DNA from: an uncultured Flavobacteriales bacterium
GTDB taxonomy: Bacteria; Bacteroidota; Bacteroidia; Flavobacteriales_F; PHOS-HE28
Reading direction: 5' to 3'
Length of the DNA: 64,000 bases
Assembly (NCBI GenBank): GCA_963706125.1
Contig: CAVPLQ010000003.1
Location: 151,571 to 215,570 of the forward strand
Shown here: positions 7,567 through 49,915 of the stretch, one piece after another
How positions within the stretch are numbered: position 1 is the first letter of the stretch
Layout: every line of letters begins with the position of its first letter
Notes under the pieces: generated by a model
Seen by the model: the letters and a program-made list of their open reading frames with translations, nothing else
The model's database searches: none
Told to the model about the DNA's origin: nothing
Position numbers and translations under genes: made by a program

Positions 7567-7818
7567 GTGGTCAGCCTTGATCGGCGATCCGATCGAGATC
7601 TCGATCAATGTTGCATTCCCTCACACCACCTGTCCATGGGTGAACAGGGAGTGGTCCTTAAGGTATCATTAAGAATTACATGAGGCCACATGGATCCGTT
7701 CACAATTGAACGGCCGGACAGATCGATGCGTTCCGGTCCACCAATGCTCGGTTGAGGCCATCGATGTCCTCCGTTCGGAAGTATATTGCCCTGTCCTGCG
7801 CTGGGCTACCTTGCGGCC

Positions 7819-9315
7819 ATGCGTTTTCCTCTACCCTTCCTGCTCGTTTCACTCTCTATTGGTCCACTATCCGCACAGACCTGGGAACCCGTGGGCAGTG
7901 GTGCCAGTTCCACCGTGTATGCCTTGGAACCATTCGGCGGGGAGCTTTTTGTAGGTGGGGTGTTCACGGAGATCGGCGGAGTGAACACGAACTACTTGGC
8001 GCGGTGGGACGGATCTGAATGGAACGCGGTGGCCAACCTCATCACTTACATGGCCGCGGACGGCCTCTATGCGAACGACACTGCCCTCTTCATCGGCGAT
8101 GGTGGCCGGGTGCGGTTCTGGAACGGCACCAACCTGTTCAACCTCACCGGGGTCAGCAGTTCATCGTTCAACAGCACCGCGTACAGCATGGCCCATTTTC
8201 AGGATACGTTGTACGTGGGCGGCTTCTTCTCCTCCCCGTTCGCCCGGATCGCAAAGTGGACCGGCAGCGGGTATGAGTCCCTCACCTCGGGCTGCAATGC
8301 GCAAGTATCAGCGCTTACACCTTTTGAAGGCCAACTCTTTGTTGGCGGGAACTTTTATAACGCCGGGGATTCATTAGTGCGCCACACCGCCCTGTGGAAC
8401 GGTAGCGAGTGGAACCGCATGGGCGACGGGGTGAATAACGATGTGTTCACGCATTGCATGTACCGGGACACGCTGTACATCGGTGGGCGCTTCACCCAAG
8501 CGAACGGCTTGGCCGCCAGCCGCGTGGCCAAGTGGAACGGCAGCCAATGGGTGAAGGTGGGCGGCACCTTGAACGATTACGTTACCGCCATGACCGTGTA
8601 CCGCGACCAGCTTTATATCGGCGGAGCATTCACAACACCGAGCTACATCGCCCGTCTTTCCGGCAGTGCATGGGTGCCCGTGGGGCTAGGCTGCGACAAC
8701 AAGGTGCGCACGATGGAGGTTTACCACGACAGTCTGTTCGTGGGCGGCGACTTCACTATGGCAGGGGGCGATCCCGCAAACCACATTGCCAAGTGGCACT
8801 TGCCCGAAGCGCCAGCAGCCACCTTCAGCGTAGGCAGTCCAACACTTTGCCCGAACGAATGCACCAGCTTCACGGACAATTCGCCGAACGGCGTTTCCAC
8901 CCGGGCCTGGAGCTTCCCCGGAGGCACGCCCGCCACCAGTGCGGACAGCATGCCCACGGTCTGCTATGAGCTGCCCGGCACCTATTCCGTAACGCTCACA
9001 GTAACGAACGCGGGCGGAAGCGATACGGCAACGGACAGCACTGCCGTATTGGTGGACGTCTGCTCCGGGATCGAACGATCAACCGTTGTGGGAGACCTCT
9101 TAGTGAGGCCCAATCCCGTCCATCGGTCGCTCCACCTGAAACTGCCCGGCAGCGGCCGCATCGCGGTGATCAATGCACAGGGCCGCGTGGTGCTCACGAT
9201 GCACAGCCCAAGTGAAGAGCACGTGCTGGATACCGCCGACCTGCCAGTAGGCATCTACGTCGTGCGCTTTACCGGGGAAGGTCTTGTGGCCTCCGCGACG
9301 TTCGTGAAGGAATAG
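7819..9315 (+). CDS. T9SS cargo protein with a beta-propeller-like repeat region, a PKD domain and a Por_Secre_tail C-terminal domain
   Basis: It has a signal peptide, MRFPLPFLLVSLSIGPLSAQ. A PKD-like motif, AWSFPGGTPATSADSMPTVCYELPGTYSVTLTVTNAGGSD, is present. The T9SS C-terminal domain reads LLVRPNPV...GIYVVRF...FVKE. Confidence 0.7.
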   Translation: MRFPLPFLLVSLSIGPLSAQTWEPVGSGASSTVYALEPFGGELFVGGVFTEIGGVNTNYLARWDGSEWNAVANLITYMAADGLYANDTALFIGDGGRVRFWNGTNLFNLTGVSSSSFNSTAYSMAHFQDTLYVGGFFSSPFARIAKWTGSGYESLTSGCNAQVSALTPFEGQLFVGGNFYNAGDSLVRHTALWNGSEWNRMGDGVNNDVFTHCMYRDTLYIGGRFTQANGLAASRVAKWNGSQWVKVGGTLNDYVTAMTVYRDQLYIGGAFTTPSYIARLSGSAWVPVGLGCDNKVRTMEVYHDSLFVGGDFTMAGGDPANHIAKWHLPEAPAATFSVGSPTLCPNECTSFTDNSPNGVSTRAWSFPGGTPATSADSMPTVCYELPGTYSVTLTVTNAGGSDTATDSTAVLVDVCSGIERSTVVGDLLVRPNPVHRSLHLKLPGSGRIAVINAQGRVVLTMHSPSEEHVLDTADLPVGIYVVRFTGEGLVASATFVKE

Positions 9316-24842: not shown

Positions 24843-25934
24843 TCAGTGCTGGTCGTAGTCCACTACTACGCGCTCGGTCAGCGGGTGGCTCTGGCAGGTG
24901 AGCACATAGCCGTCCGCCACCTCCTCGTCGGTGAGCGCGTAATTCATGTCCATGGCCACCTTGCCTTCCACGATGCGGGCCTTGCAGGTGCAGCAAACCG
25001 CGCCCTTGCACGCGTATGGCACGTCCAGTCCCGCAGCCTCCGCGGTGTCGAGAATGCTATCGCCCTTCGCCCCTACTTCGATCTCCGTTTCGTTACCGTC
25101 GAGAATGATCTTCACTTTGGCCTTCCCGGTCAGGGGCGCGCCGCTTGAGGGAGCTGCGGGAGTTTCAGGCTTCTTCGGCTCGCTGGTCACCGGTGTGGAG
25201 AACAGTTCCACATGGATGTGCTTCTTTTCCACGCCGGAACGCTCCAAGGCCTCGCTCACGTTCACCATCATCTGCTCGGGTCCGCAGATGAAGAATTCCT
25301 TGTGCAGCGGGTCGTTCACAAAAGCCTTCAGCAGGTTCACGGCTTTTTCATTGGTGATGCGGCCATTGAAAAGCGCCTCCATATCATTCCCGCGGCTCAG
25401 GATGTGGAATACGTTGAGACGGTCCGGGTGGTGGTTCTTCAATTCGTCCAATTTCTTCCGGAAGATGATGCGGTCCACGTCGGAATTGCCGAAGAACAGG
25501 GTGAACTTGCTCTTATGCTCAGTGCGGAGCACCGTGGTGAGGATACTGAGGATGGGCGTGATACCGCTGCCGGCCGCGAAGGCGATGTAATGGTGCTCTT
25601 GTGCGGGGTCCAGCGCGGTGTGGAAGTTGCCCATGGGCGTCATCACCTCCAGCTTGGAGCCGGGCTTGAGCTGTTCCACCAGCTGCGTGGAGGCCCTGCC
25701 TCCGTCCACTTTCTTCACCGCGATGCGGATCTCACCCGGGTCCAGCGGGCTGCTGCAGATGCTGTACGACCGGCGCAGTTCGGTGCCGTTGACATTGAGC
25801 TTCAGGGTAAGGTACTGGCCATGGATGAAGGTGAAGTCGGCCATCAGCCCAGGCGGGACGCGGAAGCCGATGGAAATACTATCCGCGGTCTCGTGATGGA
25901 TGTCGGCTACTTCAAGGGTATGGAAACGGGCCAT
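24843..25934 (-). CDS. paaE: Phenylacetyl-CoA 1,2-epoxidase reductase subunit PaaE (ferredoxin-NAD(P) reductase plus a 2Fe-2S ferredoxin domain)
   Basis: It has a flavin-binding motif RSYSICS, an NAD-binding GxGxxP-type motif (FAAGSGITP), and a C-terminal CxxxxCxxC...C [2Fe-2S] motif. It begins [15 protein letters not shown], like E. coli PaaE. Confidence 0.8.
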
Positions 25935-26094
25935 TCTGACTGGGGTATCTGACATTGCGGACAAAGGCGCCCCGGAGCATGTGGACCGGGCGGGCGGCAA
26001 AAATAGCCGCCGATCACCGCATCGCGAAGCCTGTGGCATATATCGAAACCCATCGCCTATCGCTCCTTACCTTAGCGACCACCAATCACGCAGG

Positions 26095-27036
26095 ATGATG
26101 GAAGAGAAACAGGCCGAGCAGGACTTTCAACGGAAAGTGGATGCCGAGCAGAAGATCGAACCGAAGGATTGGATGCCGGCGGACTACCGGAAGAACCTGA
26201 TCCGGCAGATCAGCCAGCACGGGCACAGCGAGATCGTGGGCATGCTGCCCGAAGGCAACTGGATCACCCGGGCGCCCAGCTTGCGCCGCAAGACCGTGCT
26301 TTTGGCCAAGGTTCAGGACGAGGCAGGCCATGGCCTCTACCTGTATAGCGCTGCTGAGACCCTGGGCATCGGACGTGATGAGATGGTGGACCAACTGCTC
26401 AGCGGCAAGGCCAAGTACAGCAGCATCTTCAACTACCCCACCATCACCTGGGCGGACATGGGTGCGATAGGCTGGTTGGTGGACGGTGCCGCGATCATGA
26501 ATCAGGTGATGCTCTGCAGAACGAGCTACGGCCCTTACGCCCGCGCCATGGTGCGCATCTGCAAGGAGGAGAGCTTCCACCAGCGGCAGGGGTATGAGAT
26601 CATGACCGTGCTGAGCAATGGCACGGCGGAGCAAAAGGCCATGGCACAGGACAGTCTGGACCGCTGGTGGTGGCCCAGCCTGATGATGTTCGGCCCCAGC
26701 GACGCGGAAAGCCCGCACAGCGCCCAGAGCATGAAATGGAAGATCAAGCGGCAGAGCAACGACGAACTGCGCCAGACCTTCATCGACCGCACCGTGCAGC
26801 AAGCCGAAGTGCTTGGATTGAAGATCCCCGACCCCAAGCTGAAATGGAATGAGGAAACGCAGCATTACGACTGGGGCGAGATCGACTGGACGGAGTTCTT
26901 CGACGTGATCAAAGGCAACGGACCGTGCAACAAGGAGCGGATGGCAGCACGCCGGAAAGCCTATGAGGACGGGGCTTGGGTGCGCGAGGCGGCGTTGGCG
27001 TATGCAGAGAAAAAAGCAAAGCGGAAGGCCGCGTAG
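26095..27036 (+). CDS. paaA: 1,2-phenylacetyl-CoA epoxidase catalytic subunit PaaA
   Basis: The di-iron carboxylate fold has Glu/His ligand motifs ([18 protein letters not shown]). The arrangement is paaABCD. Confidence 0.8.
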
Positions 27037-27117
27037 TTGTCAGTTCTTCGTTGTCAGTTGTCAGGCGTTGCCGCGCCAAGCACCATTCACCTATCACAAA
27101 ACACCGATCACTGGTAC

Positions 27118-27408
27118 ATGAGCAACGAAAAAGACTGGCCCCTCTGGGAGATCTTCATCCAGAGCAAACGCGGCTTGGACCACAAACATGTGGGCAGCCT
27201 CCACGCCGCCGATGCCCAAATGGCCATTGAAAACGCCCGTGACGTATATACGCGACGCAATGAAGGCAACAGCATCTGGGCGGTGCTGGCGGAGAACATC
27301 CATTCCAGCATGCCGGAGGACCAAGGCGCCTTCTTCGACCCAGCGGACGACAAAGTGTACCGGCATCCCACCTTCTATGTGATGCCCAAAGAGGCGAAGT
27401 ATATCTGA
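27118..27408 (+). CDS. paaB: 1,2-phenylacetyl-CoA epoxidase subunit PaaB
   Basis: MSNEKDWPLWEIFIQSKRGLDHKHVGSLHAADAQMAI is a typical PaaB sequence. Confidence 0.8.
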   Translation: MSNEKDWPLWEIFIQSKRGLDHKHVGSLHAADAQMAIENARDVYTRRNEGNSIWAVLAENIHSSMPEDQGAFFDPADDKVYRHPTFYVMPKEAKYI

Positions 27409-27410
27409 CC

Positions 27411-28169
27411 ATGACACAACAAGAAGCCTTGTTCCGCTATGCGGTGCGCATGGGCGACAACAGCTTAGTGCTGGGCCACCGCCTTAGTGAATGGTGCGGT
27501 CACGGCCCCCAGTTGGAAGAAGACATCGCACAGGCGAACATCGCTCTGGACCTGATCGGGCAGGCCCGCAACTACCTCACCTATGCCGGGGAGGTGGAAG
27601 GCAAAGGCCGCAGCGAGGACGATCTCGCCTATCTGCGCACCGACCGCGAATACCTGAACGTATTGCTGACCGAACTGCCCAAGGGCGATTATGCGCAGAC
27701 CATCGCCCGCAGCTTCCTCTTTGACGCATTCCACCTGCCGTTGCAGCAAGCGCTCACCACCAGCACCGACGAGCGCTTGAAGGGCATCGCGGAAAAATCC
27801 GTAAAGGAAGTGACCTACCACCTGCGCCACAGTAGCGAGTGGTTGATCCGTTTCGGTGACGGCACCGAGGAGAGCCACGACCGCGCACAAACCGCGCTGG
27901 ACAACCTGTGGCGCTACACGGGCGAGCTTTTCATCCCGGATGAGGCGGAAGAGCGATTGGCCAAGGCCGGTATTGCCCCGAAGCTGGACGACATCAAGAA
28001 TGAATGGAGCACCACGGTGGACAGCGTGTTGAAAGAAGCCACCCTGGAACGACCCGCGGACGGCTGGATGGCTACCGGCGGCAAGAAGGGCGTGCATTCT
28101 GAGCACATCGGACCCATGCTGGCGGAGATGCAGACACTTCAACGCACCTACCCCGGCGTGGAGTGGTAA
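27411..28169 (+). CDS. paaC: 1,2-phenylacetyl-CoA epoxidase subunit PaaC
   Basis: PaaC-like sequence and operon position. Confidence 0.75.
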   Translation: MTQQEALFRYAVRMGDNSLVLGHRLSEWCGHGPQLEEDIAQANIALDLIGQARNYLTYAGEVEGKGRSEDDLAYLRTDREYLNVLLTELPKGDYAQTIARSFLFDAFHLPLQQALTTSTDERLKGIAEKSVKEVTYHLRHSSEWLIRFGDGTEESHDRAQTALDNLWRYTGELFIPDEAEERLAKAGIAPKLDDIKNEWSTTVDSVLKEATLERPADGWMATGGKKGVHSEHIGPMLAEMQTLQRTYPGVEW

Positions 28170-28807: not shown

Positions 28808-28872
28808 TTGTGGTCTAAAGCAAACTCTTGCGGTACAGGTCACACTGCGCCTCCGCAGTACATTCGCCGCGC

Positions 28873-29826
28873 ATGGATATTTCCGTCGTCATCCCCTTGT
28901 TGAACGAGCGCGAATCGCTGCCCGAACTGGTGGCGAAGCTGCATGAGGCCATCGGCGGCATGGACAAGAGCTACGAGGTCCTGCTGATCGACGATGGCAG
29001 CCGCGACGGTTCTTGGGAGGAGATCCAGCGCCTGCACGCTGCGGACGGCCGTGTGAAGGGCATCAAGCTGGGCCGCAACTACGGGAAAAGTCCGGCGCTG
29101 AACGAAGGCTTCCTTGCCGCACAGGGCAACATGGTGATCACCATGGACGCTGACCTGCAGGACGATCCGGCGGAGATCCCCGAGCTGTACCGCATGATCA
29201 CCGAGGACGGTTTCGATCTGGTGAGCGGCTGGAAGAAAAAGCGCCACGACCCGCTGAGCAAGACCATCCCGACCAAGTTCTTCAATGCCACCATGCGCTG
29301 GGCCAGTGGTGTACAGCTTCACGATTTCAACTGCGGCCTGAAAGCATATAACAGCAAGGTGGTGAAGGCCATTGAGGTCTATGGCGAGATGCACCGCTAC
29401 ATCCCCTTCATCGCGAAGAAGGAAGGCTTCCACAAGATCGGTGAAAAGGAGGTGCTTCACCACCCGCGGAAATACGGGGTGAGCAAATTCGGGCTGGACC
29501 GCTTCATCAATGGCTACCTCAGTCTACTGACGATCACCTTCGTCTTTCGCTTTGGCAAGAAGCCCATGCACTTCTTCGGGGCGATGGGTACGCTGATGTT
29601 CTTTCTCGGTTTTCTGGCCACGCTTTGGATCCTTGGCAGTAAACTCTACAGCGTGTTCCAACATGTGCGTGCACCGTTGGTAACGGACCAACCGTTGTTC
29701 TACCTCGCCTTGACGAGCATGATCATCGGGGCGCAGCTTTTCCTCGCAGGCTTTGTGGCGGAATTAGTGGCACGTAACTCGGCCGAGCGGAATAACTACC
29801 GGGTGAGCGAAAGGCTGGGGCTTTGA
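28873..29826 (+). CDS. GT2 polyprenol-phosphate glycosyltransferase (GtrB/ArnC/DPM1-like) with C-terminal TM helices
   Basis: It begins ISVVIPLLNE and has DDGSRD and MDADLQDDP (DXD) motifs. Two C-terminal TM segments follow. Confidence 0.75.
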   Translation: MDISVVIPLLNERESLPELVAKLHEAIGGMDKSYEVLLIDDGSRDGSWEEIQRLHAADGRVKGIKLGRNYGKSPALNEGFLAAQGNMVITMDADLQDDPAEIPELYRMITEDGFDLVSGWKKKRHDPLSKTIPTKFFNATMRWASGVQLHDFNCGLKAYNSKVVKAIEVYGEMHRYIPFIAKKEGFHKIGEKEVLHHPRKYGVSKFGLDRFINGYLSLLTITFVFRFGKKPMHFFGAMGTLMFFLGFLATLWILGSKLYSVFQHVRAPLVTDQPLFYLALTSMIIGAQLFLAGFVAELVARNSAERNNYRVSERLGL

Positions 29827-29923
29827 GTTTGGGCCGCAGAGCCGCGGAGACGCAGGGAAATGTGAACCGCAACGGCCGCAACGATCACAGGACCGCGGAG
29901 GCGCTGAGGAATGCAAACCGCAG

Positions 29924-31396
29924 ATGACGCAGATGGACGCAGATAAAAGCCGATCCACCCTGAAGTTCTCTGCGTCTCTGCGCCTCGGCGGCCTTTTGAG
30001 AGCGGCACTTGCGGTTTTTGTAGTTCTCCTCTGCATCTCCTTGCTGAAGTACTTCTGGCTTGCAGGCCATGCACACCCCGTGGCAGATGACTTCTGCTAT
30101 GCGGCCAAGTCGCGCGGGGCTTCGCTGTGGGCCTGGAGCTATTCCGAATGGATGTACTGGAATGGCCGCTATGCCAGCAATTTGTTGATGATCCATGGGC
30201 CGCTCAGTTGGTCCTCCGACTTCCTGCCCGGTTATCGGGCGGTGCCGGTCCTGTTGATCGTGCTCACGTTCTTGAGCATTTGGTTCATCCTTCGCCGCGC
30301 CACCCAGCATGCGCTTTCAACCGGCCGGGAACTGTTGGGGGCGCTCGGTTTTTGGGCGCTCTACCTCAACCTGATGCCGGACCTTGGAGAGGGCTTTTAC
30401 TGGTACACCGGCGCGGTGACGTACCAACTGGGAAGCATCCTGATGCTCCTGCACCTTGGCTTGCTTTGCGGTTGTTCCCGAAAAGGATGGCAGGGTGCGT
30501 TGAACCTGTTGGTGAACATCGTGCTCGCGGTGGCGATCGTTGGCATGGACGAGATCCACATGCTGTTGATGGTATGCCTGCATGCCGTTCGTTTCATTGG
30601 GCTACTTCGGAGGCGTTCCGGTATTGGGGCGGGCCTAGTGCTATTGGCCGCGGTGGCGGGCGGCGCGGCGCTGATGTACTTCGCCCCGGGCAATGCCGTG
30701 CGCGGAGGCATGTTCGCGGACACGCATCTGTTTTGGCGATCGCTCGGCATGAGCGCTTTGCAGGCGGTCAGGTTCATCGGCACATGGGTGCTCTCCCCTG
30801 CCCTACTGGCGTTCAGCGTGCTCTACATCCCGGTCCATCGCTACCTTCGGGAACATGTGCCAGCCATGAAAAATGTGCTGCGCTTGTCCCCATGGATCAT
30901 CGCATTGTTGCCTTTTTTCCTCGTGATGGCCAGCACATTCCCCGCCTATTGGGGCACCGGGCTGCTCGGCCAGCACCGCACGATCAATGTGGCGTGCCTG
31001 TTCTTTATCCCGCTCTGGTTCCTCAACCTTTCACTATGGCTGGAGCGAAGGCCGCTGCGGAAGTTAGCGGACATGAAGCTGCCGCCGAGGGCGATCGGCA
31101 TCGCCATGGTGCTCGCACTGCTGGGACTGAACCTTACAGGGAACGGATATGCGGCCAATTCGGACCTGTTCAGCGGGCGCGCCATGAACTACGACCGCGT
31201 CATGCTAAAGCGGGAGACTGAGGTGCGCGCGGCAGCGCAGGATCCCTCGACCCGTGTGACCTTCATCCGCCTGCCAGACCCACCACGGACGTTGCCCAGC
31301 TATGAGGAACTTGGTCCGTTGCGCAGATGGATGGTGGATTGCGAGGCACGGTTTTTTGGGGCGGAAGAGCGGCAGGTGGGCATGGGTATTGAGTGA
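29924..31396 (+). CDS. Polytopic integral membrane protein, a candidate GT-C-fold glycosyltransferase and the GtrC/ArnT-like partner of the adjacent GT2
   Basis: It has at least 10 predicted TM helices. The first extracytoplasmic loop carries an acidic HPVADDF motif, as in the GT-C fold. It lies between a GtrB-like GT2 and a GT4. Confidence 0.45.
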   Translation: MTQMDADKSRSTLKFSASLRLGGLLRAALAVFVVLLCISLLKYFWLAGHAHPVADDFCYAAKSRGASLWAWSYSEWMYWNGRYASNLLMIHGPLSWSSDFLPGYRAVPVLLIVLTFLSIWFILRRATQHALSTGRELLGALGFWALYLNLMPDLGEGFYWYTGAVTYQLGSILMLLHLGLLCGCSRKGWQGALNLLVNIVLAVAIVGMDEIHMLLMVCLHAVRFIGLLRRRSGIGAGLVLLAAVAGGAALMYFAPGNAVRGGMFADTHLFWRSLGMSALQAVRFIGTWVLSPALLAFSVLYIPVHRYLREHVPAMKNVLRLSPWIIALLPFFLVMASTFPAYWGTGLLGQHRTINVACLFFIPLWFLNLSLWLERRPLRKLADMKLPPRAIGIAMVLALLGLNLTGNGYAANSDLFSGRAMNYDRVMLKRETEVRAAAQDPSTRVTFIRLPDPPRTLPSYEELGPLRRWMVDCEARFFGAEERQVGMGIE

Positions 31397-31576
31397 GCGA
31401 GGTTCACCACAGGGGCACGGGGACACAGAGAACGCATACTTCTTCTTTACCTGCTCAAGGGTGAGGGAAACCGCAACGTGCGCAACGGAATACCCGATAT
31501 GCAGGAGTAGCCAGTTGCTCCAACGTCGTTGCGGGCATTGCGGTAGAGAAACGATGCCTGAGGCATCCTATCACGG

Positions 31577-32692
31577 TCACGAAAGGTCCGAAGTGAAGAC
31601 CACCAATCCCTTCGCAAAGCGTTCCCACGAAAGCTCCTCATGCAAGGCAGCAATGTTCGCACGCAGGGCAGAAGGGGCTTGGTCGAAGAACTGCTCGATC
31701 CCCTTCGCGATCGCGTTGGCTGTCACCACCGGAACGACCACACCGGTGCGGCCATGGTCCAACGCCTCCTTCAATCCACCAACATCCGTGGCGATAACGG
31801 GCACGCCGAAGTGGTAAGCGATCGCCGTAATACCGCTTTGGGTGGCGCTCCTGTAGGGCAGAACCACGGCATCGGCGGCACTGAAGAAGCTTGGCACCTC
31901 TACATCGGCAATGAAGCGGGTGTGCAGATGGATGTGCCCACGCTGTGGGCTGGCTTCGATAAGTCGTTTGTACTCGCCGAAGTCACCATACGGTTCACCG
32001 GCGACCACCAGATGGTAGCGTTCATCCAATTTCCCGAAGGCCTCGATCAGCAGGTCCAGCCCCTTGTATTCGCGGATCAGTCCGAAGAAAAGCAGCACGC
32101 GGGCCTCTTCCGGCAGACCCAGCTCCCGTCGCGCCTCCCCTTGTGCCAGCGGTGCCCCGAAATGGTCGTAAAGCGGATGTGGCATCAGCTTCACTTTTGC
32201 TGATGGGCACAGGGACCGGATGTCTTCTCCCACCGCCTCCGTCATGGCGATGAAGCCGTCGTTCCTGCGCAGGAACCAGCGGGTGAGCGGCCGGTCGTAG
32301 AAGTGCGGTTCATGCGGCAACGCATTGTCCACGATGGTGATCACCTTCACGCCGTTCTTCCGCAAGGTTGCGGCGACCGTGCCCATGGCCGGGGCGAAGA
32401 AGGGCATCCAGTAACGCAACACCGCCACGTCGGGCCTGGCCTCCAACATGCGTTGCGCGGCGCGCTTCCAGCTCAACGGGTTGATACTGTCCAGCACCCT
32501 GACGGCCCCGATGTCGTCCGTATTTTCTGTGTCGTACTGTGAGGTGCCAGGGAACAGCAGATCCGGATATTGGCGGGTGAAGGTGAATGCCTGCACGTCA
32601 TGCTCCTTCCGCAGCTCACGCACCAACGATGTGCTGAACTGCGCGATGCCGCCACGGTAGGGCGGGAAGGCGGAGAGGAAGGAGAAACGCAT
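31577..32692 (-). CDS. GT4-family (GT-B fold) glycosyltransferase
   Basis: The C-terminal sequence is EPYGDFGEYKRL...VLPYRSATQSGITAIAYHFGVPVIATDVGGLKE (EX7E-like). Confidence 0.7.
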   Translation of the reverse strand: MRFSFLSAFPPYRGGIAQFSTSLVRELRKEHDVQAFTFTRQYPDLLFPGTSQYDTENTDDIGAVRVLDSINPLSWKRAAQRMLEARPDVAVLRYWMPFFAPAMGTVAATLRKNGVKVITIVDNALPHEPHFYDRPLTRWFLRRNDGFIAMTEAVGEDIRSLCPSAKVKLMPHPLYDHFGAPLAQGEARRELGLPEEARVLLFFGLIREYKGLDLLIEAFGKLDERYHLVVAGEPYGDFGEYKRLIEASPQRGHIHLHTRFIADVEVPSFFSAADAVVLPYRSATQSGITAIAYHFGVPVIATDVGGLKEALDHGRTGVVVPVVTANAIAKGIEQFFDQAPSALRANIAALHEELSWERFAKGLVVFTSDLS

Positions 32693-32944: not shown

Positions 32945-35881
32945 ATGACCCGATCCGCGCTTTTCCTACCCTTCGCCCTTTTTGGTCTAATGGCGCCCGC
33001 CTTTACGGCCGAGGCCGCCGACTTGCCCGCGCCGGGCGCTCCGGCCATGCCGGGCGGGGGCGTCCCGGTCAACGACCTGTGCTCCAATATCACCCCCGAG
33101 GCGCTGACCATGGGAAGCAGCCTCTCCTTTTCAGGTGATAACACCAACGCCACCTTCGATGGGGATGCCGTGCCGGGTTCCCTGTTGGACCAGTTCCCCT
33201 TCCCGGACACGTGGCATGCCTTCACCACCACCGAATGCACCAGTGTGACCGTGAGCTACTGCGCCACGGACAGCGGCTGGAGCAATGTGTGGCGCCTGCT
33301 CACCACCCAATGCCCGGCCGATTCCGTGATCCAAGCATCCAACTCCGATCAGACCACCTGCGCGAATGGTAACTGGACCTTCAGCTTCAACCAGTTGGCA
33401 CCGGGCACTTATTACCTGCCAGTACCCCATGTGGGCTTCGGCCAAGGTGGTGGCCCTTATAACATCCAAGTGAGCGCTACGGCCTGTAGTAATGACCTCT
33501 GCTCCAACATCAGTCCCGAGACGCTTGCTATCGGCGGCACGCTCAACTTCATCGGTGACAACACCAATGCCACATTCCCCGGTGATGCCGAACCCGGATC
33601 ACTCTTGGATCAGTTCCCATTCCCGAACACTTGGCATGCCTTCACCACCACCGAATGCACCCGCGTGACCGTGAGCTATTGCGCTACGGACAGCGGCTGG
33701 AGCAACGTATGGCGCCTGCTCACCACCCAATGTCCGGCCGATTCGGTGATCCAAGCCTCGAGCTCCGATCAGACCACCTGTGCAAATGGCAATTGGACCT
33801 TCAGCTTCGACCAGTTGGCACCCGGCACCTATTACCTGCCTGTGCCCAATGTGGGCTTCGGCCAGGGAGGAGGGTCGTACAGCATCGAAGTGAACGCCGC
33901 CCCGTGCAGCAATGACTTCTGTGCCAATGTGATCCCTGTGGCGCTGGCAATAGGCGGATCGCTGACCTTCACGGGCAACAACACCAATGCCACCTTCAAC
34001 GGGGATGCCGTACCGGGATTCCTTCTGGACCAGTTTCCCTTCCCCAATACTTGGCATGCCTTCACCACTACCGAATGCACTCGTGTAACCGTGAGCTACT
34101 GCGCAACTGACAGTGGCTGGAGCAATGTGTGGCGTCTGCTCACCACCCAATGCCCGGCCGATTCGGTGATCCAAGCCTCCAGCACCGATCAAACCACCTG
34201 CGCCAATGGCAACTGGACCTTCAGTTTCGACGAGCTGGCGGCGGGCACCTATTTCTTGCCGGTACCCAATGTGGGCTTTGGCCAAGGCGGAGGGCCATAT
34301 ACCATCAACGTGAATGCTGCGCCCTGTAGCAATGACTTCTGTATCAATGTTATCCCGGCCGCACTAACGATCGGCGGTTCGTTGACCTTCACGGGCAATA
34401 ACACCAATGCCACCTTCGACGGGGATGCCGTACCGGGCTCCCTGCTGGACCAATTCCCTTTCCCGAACACCTGGCACGCCTTCACCACCACCGAATGCAC
34501 CAGCGTGACGGTGAGCTACTGTGCCACCGACAGCGGCTGGAGCAACGTATGGCGCCTGCTCACCACGCAATGCCCTGCGGAATCGGTGATCAATGCTACC
34601 TCCATGGATACCACCACCTGTGCAAATGGCAATTGGACCTTCAGCTTCGACGAACTTGCTGCGGGCACCTATTACTTGCCTGTTCCGAACGTGGGCTTTG
34701 GCCAGGGTGGTGGAGCTTATGACATCAGTGTCAGCGCGGCGCCGTGCAGTAATGACCTGTGCGCCAATGTGATCGCGCAGCCGATCGCGATAGGCGGCTC
34801 TCTGATCTTCACGGGCAACAACACCAATGCCACCTTCGACGGGGATGCCGTACCGGGATCACTGCTTGCCCAGTTCCCCTTCCCGAACACCTGGCACGCC
34901 TTCACCACCACCGAATGCGCCACCATGGTGATCGACTATTGCAACACGGACAGCGGCTGGAGCAACGTGTGGCGGTTGCTCACTACTCAATGTCCTGCGA
35001 ACACTGTGATCAACGCTTCCAATGCGGATACGATCACCTGCGCCAACGGGAACTGGACCATCCGCTTCACCAATTTGCCATCAGGCACCTATTACCTGCC
35101 CGTGCCGAACACCGGCTTTGGCCAAGGAGGTGGCGCGTACACCATCGAAGTGAGCGCGGTGCTGTGCTCCGACCTTCCACCGGCGTATGACCTATGCGCC
35201 GATGTGACGGCTGCAGCCCTCGCCGTGGACAGTACGCTCAACTTCACCGGCGACAACACCAATGCGACTTTCGCAGGAGATGCTGCGCCGGGTACGATAC
35301 TGGACCAATATCCCTTCCCCAACACATGGCATGCCTTCACCGTCAGCGAATGCTCCGACGTTTCGGTCAGCTATTGCACTACTGACAGCGGTTGGAGCAA
35401 CGTATGGCAGCTGCTCACCACGGATTGCCCTGCGGATTCCATCATCAATGTCTACGGCGCCGACACGACAAGTTGTGGCAACGGCAACTGGACATTCAGC
35501 TTCCACCAATTACAACCCGGCACGTACTACCTGCCGGTGCCAAATACCGGCTTCGGCCAAGGAGGTGGGGCGTACAACATCGATGTGAGCGCAGCGGCCT
35601 GCGTCCCTGACCATGTGAGGGACGCGAACAGCTCTGGCGATTGGTCCGTCTTCCCCAATCCCACCAATGGCGAGGTGACCATTATCGCGCCGCGTGACAT
35701 GGGAACGGCCACATTGGAGTTGATCGAAATGACCGGCCGCACGATGTACCGCACACAACTGGTGATGACCGCCGGCAACTCCCATCAATTGTCGCTCGCC
35801 AGGCACATCGCCCCCGGTACGTATGCGCTCCGCATGACCACCGCGAACGGGCGAAGCACACAGCTGTTGATCCTGAAGTGA
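32945..35881 (+). CDS. T9SS cargo protein composed of seven tandem Cys-rich modules of about 140 aa from an unrecognised family, followed by a Por_Secre_tail C-terminal domain
   Basis: It has a signal peptide. Seven repeats read CSNDxCxNIxPExLxIGGxLxFxGDNTNATFxGDAxPGSLLDQFPFPNTWHAFTTTECTxVTVSYCATDSGWSNVWRLLTTQCPADSVIxAS..TTCANGNWTFSFxxLAxGTYYLPVPNVGFGQGGGxYxIxV. The T9SS C-terminal domain reads WSVFPNPTNGEVTII...GTYALRM...LLILK. Confidence 0.75.
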   Translation: MTRSALFLPFALFGLMAPAFTAEAADLPAPGAPAMPGGGVPVNDLCSNITPEALTMGSSLSFSGDNTNATFDGDAVPGSLLDQFPFPDTWHAFTTTECTSVTVSYCATDSGWSNVWRLLTTQCPADSVIQASNSDQTTCANGNWTFSFNQLAPGTYYLPVPHVGFGQGGGPYNIQVSATACSNDLCSNISPETLAIGGTLNFIGDNTNATFPGDAEPGSLLDQFPFPNTWHAFTTTECTRVTVSYCATDSGWSNVWRLLTTQCPADSVIQASSSDQTTCANGNWTFSFDQLAPGTYYLPVPNVGFGQGGGSYSIEVNAAPCSNDFCANVIPVALAIGGSLTFTGNNTNATFNGDAVPGFLLDQFPFPNTWHAFTTTECTRVTVSYCATDSGWSNVWRLLTTQCPADSVIQASSTDQTTCANGNWTFSFDELAAGTYFLPVPNVGFGQGGGPYTINVNAAPCSNDFCINVIPAALTIGGSLTFTGNNTNATFDGDAVPGSLLDQFPFPNTWHAFTTTECTSVTVSYCATDSGWSNVWRLLTTQCPAESVINATSMDTTTCANGNWTFSFDELAAGTYYLPVPNVGFGQGGGAYDISVSAAPCSNDLCANVIAQPIAIGGSLIFTGNNTNATFDGDAVPGSLLAQFPFPNTWHAFTTTECATMVIDYCNTDSGWSNVWRLLTTQCPANTVINASNADTITCANGNWTIRFTNLPSGTYYLPVPNTGFGQGGGAYTIEVSAVLCSDLPPAYDLCADVTAAALAVDSTLNFTGDNTNATFAGDAAPGTILDQYPFPNTWHAFTVSECSDVSVSYCTTDSGWSNVWQLLTTDCPADSIINVYGADTTSCGNGNWTFSFHQLQPGTYYLPVPNTGFGQGGGAYNIDVSAAACVPDHVRDANSSGDWSVFPNPTNGEVTIIAPRDMGTATLELIEMTGRTMYRTQLVMTAGNSHQLSLARHIAPGTYALRMTTANGRSTQLLILK
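33079..35610 (+). repeat. Seven direct repeats with a period of 420 bp. The sixth copy carries a 9-bp insertion. Copies 2 to 5 are nearly identical.
   Basis: Repeat starts fall at about 33079, 33499, 33919, 34339, 34759, 35188. Confidence 0.7.
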
Positions 35882-36056: not shown

Positions 36057-36441
36057 ATGCAGATCGAATTCATCCTCTACGTCGCGGACCAGTCTGCCAG
36101 CAGGGACTTCTATCGTGCCTTGTTGGCAAAGGAACCCGCCTTGGACGTGCCGGGCATGACCGGTTTCGACCTTAACGGATGCCGGTTGGGCCTGATGCCG
36201 ACTGCGGGCATCGCGAAGATCGATCACCCCTGTCCTGCCCCATCCGGATACCGCTCACGCCGTGCCTCGTTGTGAGCTGTACCTGCCGGTGACCGACCTG
36301 GACAAGGCGATAGAGCGCGGGCTGGCGGCTGGCGCGGTGCTGGTCTCGCCCCCGGCAGACCGGGATTGGGGCCACCGCGTGGGCTACCTCGCGGACCGGG
36401 ACGGGCATGTGGTGGCGCTGGCAGAGGCCGGGAGTGAATGA
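36057..36441 (+). pseudogene. VOC (glyoxalase / bleomycin-resistance-fold) family protein with one frameshift near 36225-36245
   Basis: The N-terminal half, MQIEFILYVADQSASRDFYRALLAKEPALDVPGMTGFDLNGCRLGLMPTAGIAKI, is in one frame. The C-terminal half, ...ELYLPVTDLDKAIERGLAAGAVLVSPPADRDWGHRVGYLADRDGHVVALAE, is in the +1 frame. Confidence 0.5.
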
Positions 36442-47660: not shown

Positions 47661-49649
47661 TCACTCCTTCACGAACTGTTGCCTGCTCATCTCCGTGCCG
47701 CTCCGAACGGAAAGCACATAGACCCCGGTGTTCAGGCTGGAAACATCCACATGACCGCGGTCCAGTGTTCCTTGCAGCACACGCTTCCCGGTCACGTCCA
47801 AAACCTCGAACGGATCGTTCAGCGCAACATCCCCGCCGATCACCGTCAGGACATCCTTCACCGGGTTCGGGAACAAGCCGAAAGCATGCTCCGATGCGGC
47901 ATCCGCGATACCGGTGGTAAGGGTCATGCCCTCCGTAATGGTCATCGCTTGGTCCACCTCGGCGGAAGAGAACTCATCAACAATGCCGGAGGGCCAATGC
48001 ACCGTCACCCCGGTGATGACCGAGTCCGTGCCAAAACCGAAGTGGGCATTGAGACTGCTCATGTACCGGAAGCCATCACCACTGCGGATGTCCCTGATCT
48101 GCGAACCAAGTTCGCTGGAGACCTGGACCCGGGCGCCGATGCCGTTCCTGTTGCTCACCGTACCGATCAGGTTTACCGTGAGCCAATGGTTGTCATTGCC
48201 TTGGTTCATCATGGCCGTGCTGCCGACGACGATATCCAGGAAGCCGTCATTATTGAGGTCGCCGATGGGGCCGTTCTGCGGTGCCGTGTTGTCCGGTGAA
48301 AAGGTGAGGTCGCCGTTGTTGTAGTGGATGGCACCACCGCCGATGATGTCCAGGTATCCGTCATTGTTGAAGTCACGGGTGTTCCATTCAATGCTCTGCC
48401 CACCGAAGCTGTCGAAGCCCGAACCGGTGGTGATGTTGGTGAAAGTGCCGTCCCCATTGTTCCGCATCAATTTGTGGAAGCTGCTGGAGCTGGATCCCAC
48501 GAGCACGTCCATGTCGCCATCGTTGTCGAAGTCGCCCCATGCGCTGGACCAGCTCTGGTGGTTGTCCGCGAATCCCAATGCGGCGGCCATGCTGGTGAAG
48601 GTGCCGTCCCCGTTGTTGCGCATCAGGATGTCCACGGGATCGCAGCCGCACTTGGCCACGAAGAGGTCCATGTCACCATCATTGTCATAATCCACCCAGA
48701 TGCTCCCATAGTTGCCGCAGGTGACCCCGAACTGGCCCTGCCCAAAGGTGAGCGTACCCGTGCCATCGTTCATGTAGTAGACATTCGCGTTCACATCGTG
48801 GCACATGAAGGCGTCCAGATTCCCGTCATTGTTGATGTCGATCATGTTGCCCCGTTGGCTGAACACATATTGCGGAAAGTTCTGCACCATATAATCGGTG
48901 CCGGTGCTGTTCGCCATCAGGAAAGAAACTCCGCTGCCGTTGCCGTACTGGAGGTCGTTATAGCCGTTCCCGTCCAGGTCGCCTGCCGCCATGCTCCATG
49001 TGGCCGGGAATTGCACGTTACCTGTGGGATAATTATGTGCCGTCATACCGCCCGTGACCCCTTGCTGCAAGATGTTGATGTTCGAACCGGTGACCGAGAC
49101 CATGTCGTCCAGAAAATCCCCGTTCATGTCAACGGCACCGTAGCTGTACCCTGAGACCCCCGAGAACGTCTGCGGAGTGAAGGCCACTGTACCCTCGGCC
49201 GGTGGCGGCGGAGTGATCACCACGTTTTCCTCTAGGGTGAAGTCAAAGGTGTTGGAGTTCCATTTGTTGTCGAACGCTATGATGTATGTGGTCCCTGCGA
49301 CCACATTGAACGTTGCAAGCGAGGTTAGATTTACTCCGCCATCATCGTCGCCTGCATAACAAAGCAAGGCGCCGCATCCGCCGGTGTAGACATGAAAGCG
49401 CGTATCGAGGCCGCTGGCTTCCGTGCTTACTGTGACCGCTGTATCAATGGCAGGCGTGTAACTATACCACGCACCCATGGTAGCTCCTTCCCCATATTGC
49501 GAACAGATGGGCAGGGGCACTTCCGAGCCGCTGACAAAGTTCACGGTGTACGTGTCCGGTGTGATCGGCAACGCCGTGGCGCAGGTGGTCTGGGCATCGG
49601 CCTGGGACAGAAGCAGGCCAGCGACGGAAAGGAGCAGTGTTTTCTTCAT
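47661..49649 (-). CDS. FG-GAP / VCBS-repeat (CRTAC1/UnbV-like) secreted protein with a T9SS C-terminal domain
   Basis: Signal peptide MKKTLLLSVAGLLLSQADAQ. Repeated DxDxDGxxD calcium-binding-like FG-GAP motifs. The C-terminal domain reads FGLFPNPVKDVLTV...GVYVLSV...FVKE. Confidence 0.7.
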   Translation of the reverse strand: MKKTLLLSVAGLLLSQADAQTTCATALPITPDTYTVNFVSGSEVPLPICSQYGEGATMGAWYSYTPAIDTAVTVSTEASGLDTRFHVYTGGCGALLCYAGDDDGGVNLTSLATFNVVAGTTYIIAFDNKWNSNTFDFTLEENVVITPPPPAEGTVAFTPQTFSGVSGYSYGAVDMNGDFLDDMVSVTGSNINILQQGVTGGMTAHNYPTGNVQFPATWSMAAGDLDGNGYNDLQYGNGSGVSFLMANSTGTDYMVQNFPQYVFSQRGNMIDINNDGNLDAFMCHDVNANVYYMNDGTGTLTFGQGQFGVTCGNYGSIWVDYDNDGDMDLFVAKCGCDPVDILMRNNGDGTFTSMAAALGFADNHQSWSSAWGDFDNDGDMDVLVGSSSSSFHKLMRNNGDGTFTNITTGSGFDSFGGQSIEWNTRDFNNDGYLDIIGGGAIHYNNGDLTFSPDNTAPQNGPIGDLNNDGFLDIVVGSTAMMNQGNDNHWLTVNLIGTVSNRNGIGARVQVSSELGSQIRDIRSGDGFRYMSSLNAHFGFGTDSVITGVTVHWPSGIVDEFSSAEVDQAMTITEGMTLTTGIADAASEHAFGLFPNPVKDVLTVIGGDVALNDPFEVLDVTGKRVLQGTLDRGHVDVSSLNTGVYVLSVRSGTEMSRQQFVKE

Positions 49650-49915
49650 GGGTCGTTTGGGTTCTTTGGGCGGGGTCGTCTTGCAATTGACGGACGCGGC
49701 AGGGAGGCTGAAGGAACACCACCATTCCACCTTCCGGCCCGTCAAGATAAGTCAAGGACGTAAGTGAAAGGAAAAAGGTGGCTTCAGGGAGCGGCGTTGC
49801 CGCAAGTATCTTGCGGCCAAAACCACGATCGCGGTCCCGGCACCGGAATATGCTGGAACTCAACCTTCACCCCCGATCACCGTTCAAAGCGTTTTACAAG
49901 TAAAGGACCGTACCC

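Follow-up and report, generated by a model that had tools for sequence, protein, structure and literature searches.

Characterised members of the PPC (pre-peptidase C-terminal, PF04151), galactose-binding-domain-like and CUB-like jelly-roll group bind collagen, claudin, glycans and other proteins, and beta-sandwich arrays can serve as passive spacers too. [quoted passage not shown] The fate of T9SS cargo after cleavage of its C-terminal domain (CTD) has been described in model species, and in Tannerella forsythia the major class of O-glycoproteins consists of T9SS cargo, S-layer proteins included (PMC8550257). Our literature search returned no paper joining the T9SS with PPC. Here we describe a predicted T9SS cargo protein of an uncultured Flavobacteriales bacterium that carries six copies of a module remotely related to PPC. 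The protein is real but fairly ordinary and probably of adhesin type, cargo with tandem beta-sandwich modules being common and the protein itself therefore unsurprising; its modest value lies in the module, which represents a large family that curated libraries miss at threshold.

Layout of the protein

The window, by which we mean the whole stretch of 64,000 nucleotides analysed, contains at 32945-35881 on the forward strand one genuine open reading frame of 978 aa, laid out as follows.

32945..33016, + strand: predicted Sec signal peptide (aa 1-24, MTRSALFLPFALFGLMAPAFTAEA), from its hydrophobic core
33017..33079, + strand: N-terminal linker rich in Pro, Gly and Ala, from the alignment of orthologue N-termini
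33080..33499, + strand: module 1 (aa 46-185), putative six-cysteine PPC-like beta-sandwich, HMM score 276
33500..33919, + strand: module 2 (aa 186-325), the copy used for modelling (AF2, PPC match, Foldseek)
33920..34339, + strand: module 3 (aa 326-465), from the repeat HMM and alignment, and part of the tandem model of modules 2 and 3
34340..34759, + strand: module 4 (aa 466-605), whose nearest copy is module 3
34760..35194, + strand: module 5 (aa 606-750), 145 aa long, the linker towards module 6 holding five inserted residues (LPPAY)
35195..35614, + strand: module 6 (aa 751-890), the copy that has diverged furthest, and the positional orthologue of the last module in syntenic orthologues
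35615..35647, + strand: short linker from the last module to the CTD (aa 891-901)
35648..35881, + strand: T9SS type A C-terminal sorting domain (aa 902-978) and stop codon (PF18962, TIGR04183)

By inspection the signal peptide consists of MTRS, the hydrophobic core and the boundary AEA/A. The core is present only when translation starts at the ATG at 32945, and a comparable signal peptide begins all of the orthologues; the database version of the protein (P0001, 963 aa) begins at M16 and its signal peptide is thus truncated. The precomputed domains of that entry include PF27610.1, which appears in no other homologue and is unlikely to be the module family. A conserved P-x-N-D-L motif closes the N-terminal linker and the same motif stands ahead of every module. 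At the other end of the protein the CTD scores above the curated cut-offs of both PF18962 (aa 902-975, 41.9 bits, cut-off 27) and TIGR04183 (aa 902-977, 40.8 bits, cut-off 23) and, together with the Sec-type signal peptide, bears out the assignment as T9SS cargo made in the first-pass annotation. Because two other type A CTD proteins are encoded in the window (7786-9315 and 47661-49745) there is indirect support, at the level of sequence, for use of a T9SS by this organism; none of PorK/L/M/N, SprA/Sov and PorU/V was found among the 26 window ORFs scanned. The neighbouring genes (GT4, RecQ) offered no functional clue and a scan for promoters and terminators gave nothing usable, the four terminator-like matches on the minus strand being artefacts that sit within the coding repeats and share their periodicity.

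Copy number and age of the array

Tandem repeats finder (TRF) detects a single array with a period of 420 bp (140 aa) at 33140-35602 (score 2277, 5.8 copies), in agreement with the tandem unit first read from the sequence, and the motifs that had been quoted for it (GDNTNATF/GNNTNATF, GFGQGGG and C-SND-x-C) are found in the modules. Six cysteines fall in each 140-aa period as had been described, and each of the six columns is at least 95% conserved among 450 homologue modules. The same annotation had counted seven modules with about 95% DNA identity between several of them. A six-frame HMM search of the window returns exactly six, with none outside the array, and no pair comes near that identity, pairwise values being 70-82% for DNA and 64-88% for protein. 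Exact runs common to copies extend to 39 nt at most, and identity peaks at 93% in 60-nt windows.

These values bear on the explanation that the array was amplified very recently, that gene conversion still keeps its copies alike, or that it arose in assembly and its copy number is not to be relied upon. Between modules dS is 0.7-1.7, similar to the 0.67-1.14 of neighbour genes and their orthologues in L001, the nearest syntenic relative; module 4 and its nearest copy, module 3 (88% aa identity), have a dS of 1.17. With a dN/dS of 0.07-0.23 between copies we conclude from these substitution estimates that the array is old and under purifying selection, and that each copy is functionally constrained. 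A shared run of 39 nt in copies that are 70-82% identical is too short to collapse reads of at least 100 nt, which argues against the earlier concern that the assembly had misjudged the repeat count.

Comparison with orthologues in conserved synteny, which contain 5, 5 and 3 modules against the 6 found here (1-9 in the wider family), yields the evidence in favour of this explanation. In a neighbour-joining tree the interior modules group by genome and not by position, with bootstrap values of 96% for modules 1-4 of L002 and 98% for modules 1-2 of L003; modules 1-4 of the window protein also group, without bootstrap support except for modules 3 and 4 (66%). The best match of modules 1-4 within the protein (84-88% aa) likewise exceeds the best match to an orthologue (76-82%). 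Against this, the last modules of the different genomes are cleanly orthologous by position, module 6 of the window protein forming one group with module 5 of L001 and module 5 of L002 at 100% bootstrap. The first proposal of very recent amplification or ongoing gene conversion is not supported as it stood, but survives in a weaker form, as homogenisation or module turnover within lineages; taken together the recent-amplification or artefact explanation has largely failed, and we consider it highly improbable. The orthologue comparison is a clean small case of repeat-array evolution in which the terminal module is fixed and the interior modules are lineage-specific.

Sequence and fold of the module

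The module had initially been described as one that could not be placed in a known family. Searched with the whole protein, the PPC family scores 78.3 bits summed over six stretches (E 8e-22, cut-off 25.9), and each of the six copies matches along positions 3-66 of the 70-position profile. Taken singly, the modules score 19.6-21.2 bits, below the 25.9 gathering score, with module 2 at 21.2 bits (E 5.6e-4), and among 70 diverse family modules only eight match PPC at E <= 0.01. Isolated single-module homologues have no precomputed Pfam domain on the module, with a T9SS tail or PF23759 only, on four of them, and our Pfam and NCBIfam searches found no curated model that covers the module at threshold. 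Alignment of the module with GBD_T9SS_assoc (PF23759) by hhalign gave a probability of 70% and an E-value of 3.9e-5 over 91 columns. Sequence searches of the PDB with a single module and with a 70-sequence profile gave nothing significant, the best being filamin (E 0.013) and a collagenase collagen-binding domain (CBD; E 1.9).

Several other candidates were rejected. The NCBIfam matches to glucose-6-phosphate isomerase (48 bits, cut-off 703), a BapA-type adhesin C-terminus (41 bits, cut-off 180) and FxDxF PEP-CTERM (35 bits, cut-off 50) are noise from the repeat and its composition, and the Pfam matches to CarboxypepD_reg, Big_13, SpaA, SdrD_B and similar families cover only the short G-T-Y-Y-x-P-V hairpin of about 25-40 residues and are generic beta-hairpin matches.

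The AF2 model of module 2 (pLDDT 92.7, pTM 0.87) is an all-beta structure folded as a beta-sandwich. Its best match in the PDB by Foldseek is the collagen-binding domain of ColG (1nqj_A, the PPC archetype), with a probability of 1.0, 15% identity and a TM-score of 0.44 normalised to the query and 0.59 to the target; further neighbours include CUB, CBM35/CBM6, the C-terminal domain of Clostridium perfringens enterotoxin (C-CPE) and BoNT HA70, all of which are binding modules. For the single module no PDB match reached E <= 1e-3, and with such E-values and TM-scores of 0.44-0.59 function cannot be transferred from any one structural neighbour. By the test that the first-pass annotation had set against its own claim the module can be placed, given the PPC match in six of six copies, the ColG CBD as best fold match and the alignment with PF23759, and the original description holds to the extent that the placement is remote, every copy lying under the PPC gathering score. 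On sequence and model together the modules are probably distant members of the PPC/galactose-binding-domain-like/CUB-like jelly-roll group. A tandem model of modules 2 and 3 (pLDDT 89.9, pTM 0.70) keeps a pLDDT of 84-89 over the linker, which suggests that the chain is fairly stiff.

A family of modules in T9SS cargo

The module family falls into no fewer than 2,150 clusters at 50% identity and is seldom found outside T9SS cargo. Family members combine it with Por_Secre_tail and GBD_T9SS_assoc, GEVED, HYR or TSP_3, and neither the 19 of them that were scanned nor the window protein contain a catalytic or peptidase domain. Two related modules lack both Cys53 and Cys136, which were lost together, a hint that these two cysteines may pair in a disulfide. 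One reading of the family, which we put forward tentatively and rate at somewhat under an even chance, is that the module forms a large uncurated family of its own, sister to PPC and GBD_T9SS_assoc and with its own ligand specificity, whose interior modules are gained, lost or homogenised in each lineage behind a fixed C-terminal module. If this were true, a family whose carriers are nearly all T9SS cargo proteins from uncultured Flavobacteriales and other members of the Bacteroidota would represent a class of surface lectins or adhesins of variable valency by which environmental Flavobacteriales attach to particles or polymers. Now that the module has been modelled with confidence and linked remotely to PPC and GBD_T9SS_assoc, it would serve well as the seed of a new domain model.

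Putative function

We consider it probable that the protein is a non-enzymatic T9SS cargo, with a multivalent cell-surface binding or adhesin role the likeliest one because related jelly-roll modules are binders. The Sec signal peptide would take the protein into the periplasm and the type A CTD would direct its passage through the T9SS, the CTD then being removed by the PorU sortase if studied cargo is a guide. The mature protein, acidic (pI about 4) and of about 92 kDa, would by the same analogy be attached to surface polysaccharide or released. The mature part is an array of six 140-aa beta-sandwich modules with linkers of four residues between them (C-S-N-D-x-C), each module probably braced by three disulfides. 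Both the AF2 beta-sandwich model and its structural neighbours are consistent with the disulfide-braced, non-catalytic, lectin- or adhesin-like module that had been suggested at the outset. A candidate ligand would be polymeric or particulate, reach and valency would depend on how many modules the chain has, and the module is thus a candidate binding module for studies of particle and polymer attachment in uncultured Flavobacteriales.

The analysis brought out neither a ligand nor a binding site or Ca2+ site for the module, which counts against the binding reading. The lack of a binding site also favours a structural role, in which the six modules would make up a passive stalk or a coat resembling an S-layer, perhaps glycosylated and devoid of a specific ligand, and their conservation would come from folding and packing alone. 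The short, well-predicted linkers and the tandem pTM of 0.70 point the same way, as do the S-layer proteins among the O-glycosylated T9SS cargo of T. forsythia (PMC8550257). Such a coat would also fit the eight D(S/T)(A/I/L/V/M/T) sites of the protein (aa 126, 266, 406, 555, 695, 762, 831 and 840), at least one in each module, which had been taken at first reading to be O-glycosylation motifs. The sites are present, but they are neither significantly enriched (8 observed, 4.6 +/- 2.0 in shuffles that preserve composition, with 8 reached in 8% of them) nor conserved, the best column in the family being only 20% conserved. N-x-S/T sequons, also part of that argument, number 21 against 14.4 +/- 3.3 in the shuffles, and we know of no glycosylation system for N-sequons in Bacteroidota; judged by these motif counts the argument for glycosylation appears weak. 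The fold neighbours are moreover all ligand-binding modules, and the surface-loop motifs GDNTxAT and W-H-x-F are more strongly conserved in the family than a spacer role would require. We regard a purely structural coat or spacer as unlikely, and continue to favour multivalent surface binding.

A mobile gliding-motility adhesin such as RemA or SprB, propelled along the cell surface after export, is a further alternative, and a T9SS cargo of repetitive, binding-type architecture in a Flavobacteriales genome would be compatible with it. Yet no search linked the protein to SprB or RemA by sequence or by domain, gld and spr genes were not seen in its vicinity and, at 978 aa, the protein is small beside SprB, so that a gliding role seems very unlikely.

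Comparison with known systems

With the characterised type A cargo, namely the gingipains and HBP35 of Porphyromonas gingivalis and TfsA and TfsB of T. forsythia, the protein shares a signal peptide, a type A sorting domain and potential O-glycosylation motif sites (PMC8550257, PMC5445135) and, by analogy, would share CTD cleavage and surface attachment. In contrast to these proteins its passenger region is unrelated, with neither a protease nor an S-layer domain, and its host is an uncultured Flavobacteriales MAG in which the protein is known from sequence. CUB, CBM35/CBM6 and C-CPE have the same jelly-roll beta-sandwich by Foldseek and are ligand-binding modules, often tandem and often Ca2+-dependent; the likeness is at the level of the fold, with E-values of 0.003-0.09 for the single module, identities of 6-16%, TM-scores of 0.3-0.46 and no signal in sequence. 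PPC comes closer, being the sole Pfam family whose profile is matched almost end to end in every copy of the module and, as the module is predicted to be, a beta-sandwich accessory binding module of secreted proteins. The module described here differs in being about 40 aa longer with six conserved cysteines, and in standing, with no peptidase attached, in a six-fold tandem array ahead of a T9SS CTD. GBD_T9SS_assoc shares with the module a P-x-N-D-x-C start, the motifs G-x-x-x-G-A-T and V-W-x-x-F and conserved cysteines, and the two co-occur in the same proteins among more distant homologues. Since they overlap in none of 63 homologue segments, and since hmmscan of the window protein gives no PF23759 match at E <= 1, we read them as sister families and not as one.

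A six-module T9SS cargo protein

The target is a single long ORF at 32945-35881 (+) encoding 978 aa, exactly as placed by the first-pass annotation, and the architecture of its product is near certain. Tandem Repeats Finder reports one array at 33140-35602 with a period of 420 bp, 5.8 copies, 77% matches and a score of 2277, and the motif positions in the translation define six modules where seven had been proposed. Module 5 extends to 145 aa through a 5-residue insertion within the linker. When all six frames of the window were searched with an HMM built from the six copies, exactly these modules were returned and no further copy elsewhere. The six cysteines described for each repeat are indeed present (36 in the array, six per period) and all six cysteine columns are 95-100% conserved across 450 modules from 119 homologous proteins; every motif originally quoted was also recovered in the translation. 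Four minus-strand terminator-like hits and long minus-strand ORFs within 33150-35275 recur at the 420-bp period inside the coding repeat (e.g. ORF 33599-34285, 228 aa) and were rejected as by-products of the repeat and its high G+C.

Modules of the target protein (plus strand, from motif positions in the translation)
aa 46-185, module 1
aa 186-325, module 2
aa 326-465, module 3
aa 466-605, module 4
aa 606-750, module 5
aa 751-890, module 6

A T9SS sorting domain of type A forms the C-terminal domain (CTD), at aa 902-978, as had been claimed, and scores above the cut-offs of both TIGR04183 (40.8 bits, cut-off 23) and PF18962 (41.9 bits, cut-off 27). Translated from the ATG at 32945, the protein starts with MTRSALFLPFALFGLMAPAFTAEA followed by AD. 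This is a typical signal peptide, and every orthologue opens with a comparable one. The database copy of the protein, P0001 (963 aa), is 100% identical, but its start is set 15 residues further on, at Met16 (window position 32990); this deposited start is probably mis-called, because the hydrophobic core of the signal peptide is lost from it and the ATG at 32945 restores an orthologue-like signal peptide. The N-terminal Pro/Gly-rich linker ends in P-x-N-D-x-C, and the same motif stands ahead of each later module. At aa 25-901, the mature passenger has a mass of ~92 kDa, a pI of ~4.05 and almost no lysine.

Age and turnover of the modules

Several of the modules had been described as about 95% identical at the DNA level and hence very recently amplified or subject to ongoing gene conversion. 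Our analysis shows pairwise identities of 70-82% for DNA and 64-88% for protein, with 39 nt the longest exact DNA run common to any two modules and 93% the best identity in a 60-nt window. Values of dS between modules (Nei-Gojobori) are 0.71-1.66, and those between the target genome and its closest syntenic relative, L001, are 0.67 for RecQ, 0.81 for PaaC, 0.91 for GT4 and 1.14 for the membrane-protein gene. The modules date back as far as the split of these two genomes, and every one is under strong purifying selection (dN/dS 0.07-0.23). The earlier reading of recent amplification or an assembly artefact is contradicted by both the dS and the identity values and is highly improbable; a repeat collapsed or expanded by short-read assembly is unlikely because the copies are so diverged. 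The original finding is real but was over-described.

A scan of one genome per species identified three related loci (L001, L002 and L003), all in Flavobacteriales MAGs, with 5, 5 and 3 modules, and proteins of the wider family carry 1-9. Neighbour-joining of the 19 modules from the target and these orthologues joins the terminal target module to the terminal modules of L001 and L002 (100% bootstrap), whereas interior modules cluster by genome (L002 modules 1-4, 96%; L003 modules 1-2, 98%). Target modules 1-4 form one group without bootstrap support (modules 3 and 4 alone, 66%) and have their best matches within their own protein (84-88%, versus 76-82% in orthologues). Together the tree and the within-protein matches point to lineage-specific turnover in which interior modules have been gained, lost or homogenised behind a fixed terminal module, on the time scale of species divergence rather than recently.

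Fold and family of the module

The Pfam PPC domain (PF04151, bacterial pre-peptidase C-terminal domain) matched the whole target at 78.3 bits (E 8e-22) in six stretches spanning profile positions 3-66 of 70. A lone module scored 19.6-21.2 bits (E ~1e-3), below the 25.9-bit gathering score, and among 70 diverse family modules eight matched at E <= 0.01 and none passed the cut-off. Other Pfam matches (CarboxypepD_reg, Big_13, SpaA, SdrD_B and others) were generic, covering the G-T-Y-Y-x-P-V hairpin only, and were set aside. NCBIfam gave no match to the module, and sequence and profile searches of the PDB were negative, with a collagenase CBD at E 1.9 only.

A confident AlphaFold2 model of module 2 from a 70-sequence alignment is all-beta with eight strands (pLDDT 92.7, pTM 0.87). 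Foldseek found no PDB match at E <= 1e-3; the top match, 1nqj_A, was the collagen-binding domain of ColG, which is the structural archetype of PPC and which the model resembles remotely (E 2.3e-3, probability 1.0, TM 0.44 query-normalised and 0.59 target-normalised). Next came the C. perfringens enterotoxin C-terminal domain, PliG, CUB domains, CBM35/CBM6 and GOLD. In more distant homologues the module alternates with PF23759 GBD_T9SS_assoc ("galactose binding domain-like"), with which it has the G-x-N-x-G-A-T and V-W-x-x-F motifs in common; hhalign of the module alignment against 63 GBD_T9SS_assoc segments gave a probability of 70% (E 3.9e-5, 91 columns). Profiles and model both point to the jelly-roll group of PPC / GBD-like domains, with the module as a distant, Cys-rich member. 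The module had been considered unplaceable, which holds for curated families at threshold but not at superfamily level.

Run exhaustively against 1.84 billion cluster representatives, a profile search returned 2,150 proteins at E <= 1e-3, of which 955 reach <= 1e-10 and 258 reach <= 1e-30. Those with names come from Flavobacteriales/Bacteroidetes MAGs and are called solely "hypothetical protein" or "T9SS type A sorting domain-containing protein". Precomputed Pfam domains do not cover the module in any of 24 short homologues from the profile search: 19 have no such domain at all and the others a T9SS tail or PF23759 only. Partner domains in 19 scanned family members were Por_Secre_tail, GBD_T9SS_assoc, GEVED, HYR, TSP_3 and, once, dockerin, with no catalytic domain among them. 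The dockerin is of type I and replaces the T9SS tail in P0245 (1744 aa), a member from the representative library, so the restriction of the module to T9SS cargo is not strict.

Module chain and glycosylation sites

Only four residues separate the last cysteine of one module from the first of the next, and a two-module AlphaFold2 model has pLDDT 84-89 over the junction (pTM 0.70). Judged from these confidence values only, the chain may be fairly stiff rather than one of floppy beads. Foldseek with this model returned multi-CUB proteins and botulinum HA70 at low TM (~0.2).

D(S/T)(A/I/L/V/M/T) is the Bacteroidota O-glycosylation motif, and in Tannerella forsythia T9SS cargo makes up a major class of glycoproteins (PMC8550257). 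Of the motifs on which glycosylation had been argued, the O-motif does occur in every module, but its count (8 sites, at least one per module) is not significantly above that of shuffled sequences (4.6 +/- 2.0; 8% of shuffles reach 8), and in the most frequent family column only 20% of modules carry it. O-glycosylation of the target is thus possible, but the family does not conserve it as a trait of the module. There are 21 N-x-S/T sites versus 14.4 +/- 3.3 in shuffles. At column 98 the G-N-x-T site reaches 76% conservation and is more likely structural than a glycosylation site; Bacteroidota are not known to have an N-glycosylation system.

Genomic neighbourhood

On one side of the target, across a 252-bp spacer, lies a GT4 gene in divergent orientation, and on the other a RecQ gene in convergent orientation. 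A scan for regulatory signals gave neither a sigma-70-like promoter nor a convincing terminator, and the neighbourhood shows no sign of a dedicated partner.

Other features of the window
7786-9315 (+), T9SS type A CTD protein, beta-propeller/PKD, 509 aa
17196-19643 (+), 815-aa ORF with ThiF-family and nitroreductase-family domains, an unusual fusion
24843-28169, phenylacetate-CoA oxygenase set upstream of the target: PaaE-like reductase (-) and PaaA/PaaC-family subunits
28828-32692, GT2 / membrane protein / GT4 cluster directly upstream of the target, GT4 divergent
47661-49745 (-), T9SS type A CTD protein, FG-GAP / ASPIC-UnbV, 694 aa

L001 keeps gene order on both flanks (phenylacetate genes, GT2, 490-aa membrane protein, GT4 on the opposite strand, target, RecQ on the opposite strand, Usp, TPMT) and L002 on the upstream side; the phenylacetate set and the GT cluster are syntenic in both. 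The GT2 resembles ArnC-like polyprenyl-phosphate sugar transferases, although its 167 bits fall far short of the equivalog cut-off, and the 490-aa polytopic membrane protein has no Pfam or NCBIfam match. The cluster could comprise a lipid-linked sugar donor and a membrane glycosyltransferase; any link to the target cargo is pure speculation.

Between target and RecQ, 36057-36440 (+) holds an apparent small VOC/glyoxalase-type gene, assigned by eye and seemingly frameshift-split, with its N-terminal part (MQIEFILYVADQSASRDFYRALLAKEP...) in one frame from 36057 and its C-terminal part (...VLVSPPADRDWGHRVGYLADRDGHVVALAE) in a different one from ~36241. In L001, with a spacer of only 350 bp, no counterpart was found.

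Proposed function

The protein would be exported by Sec to the periplasm, translocated through the T9SS as directed by its type A CTD and, by analogy with studied cargo, freed of the CTD and attached to surface polysaccharide, so displaying a chain of six disulfide-braced binding modules. The structural neighbours of the module are all ligand-binding (collagen, claudin, glycans or proteins) and no enzyme domain occurs in the 19 family members scanned, and for these reasons we favour, with some reserve, a T9SS-displayed, multivalent adhesin or binding protein whose ligand would be polymeric or particulate. A passive surface spacer or coat, possibly glycosylated at the O-motifs present in each module, is rather unlikely beside these binding folds, and a mobile gliding adhesin of the RemA/SprB kind is improbable. 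The main value of this putative adhesin is as a seed for a large uncurated domain family, and it is an uncharacterised addition to the well-known T9SS-secreted repetitive beta-sandwich surface proteins.
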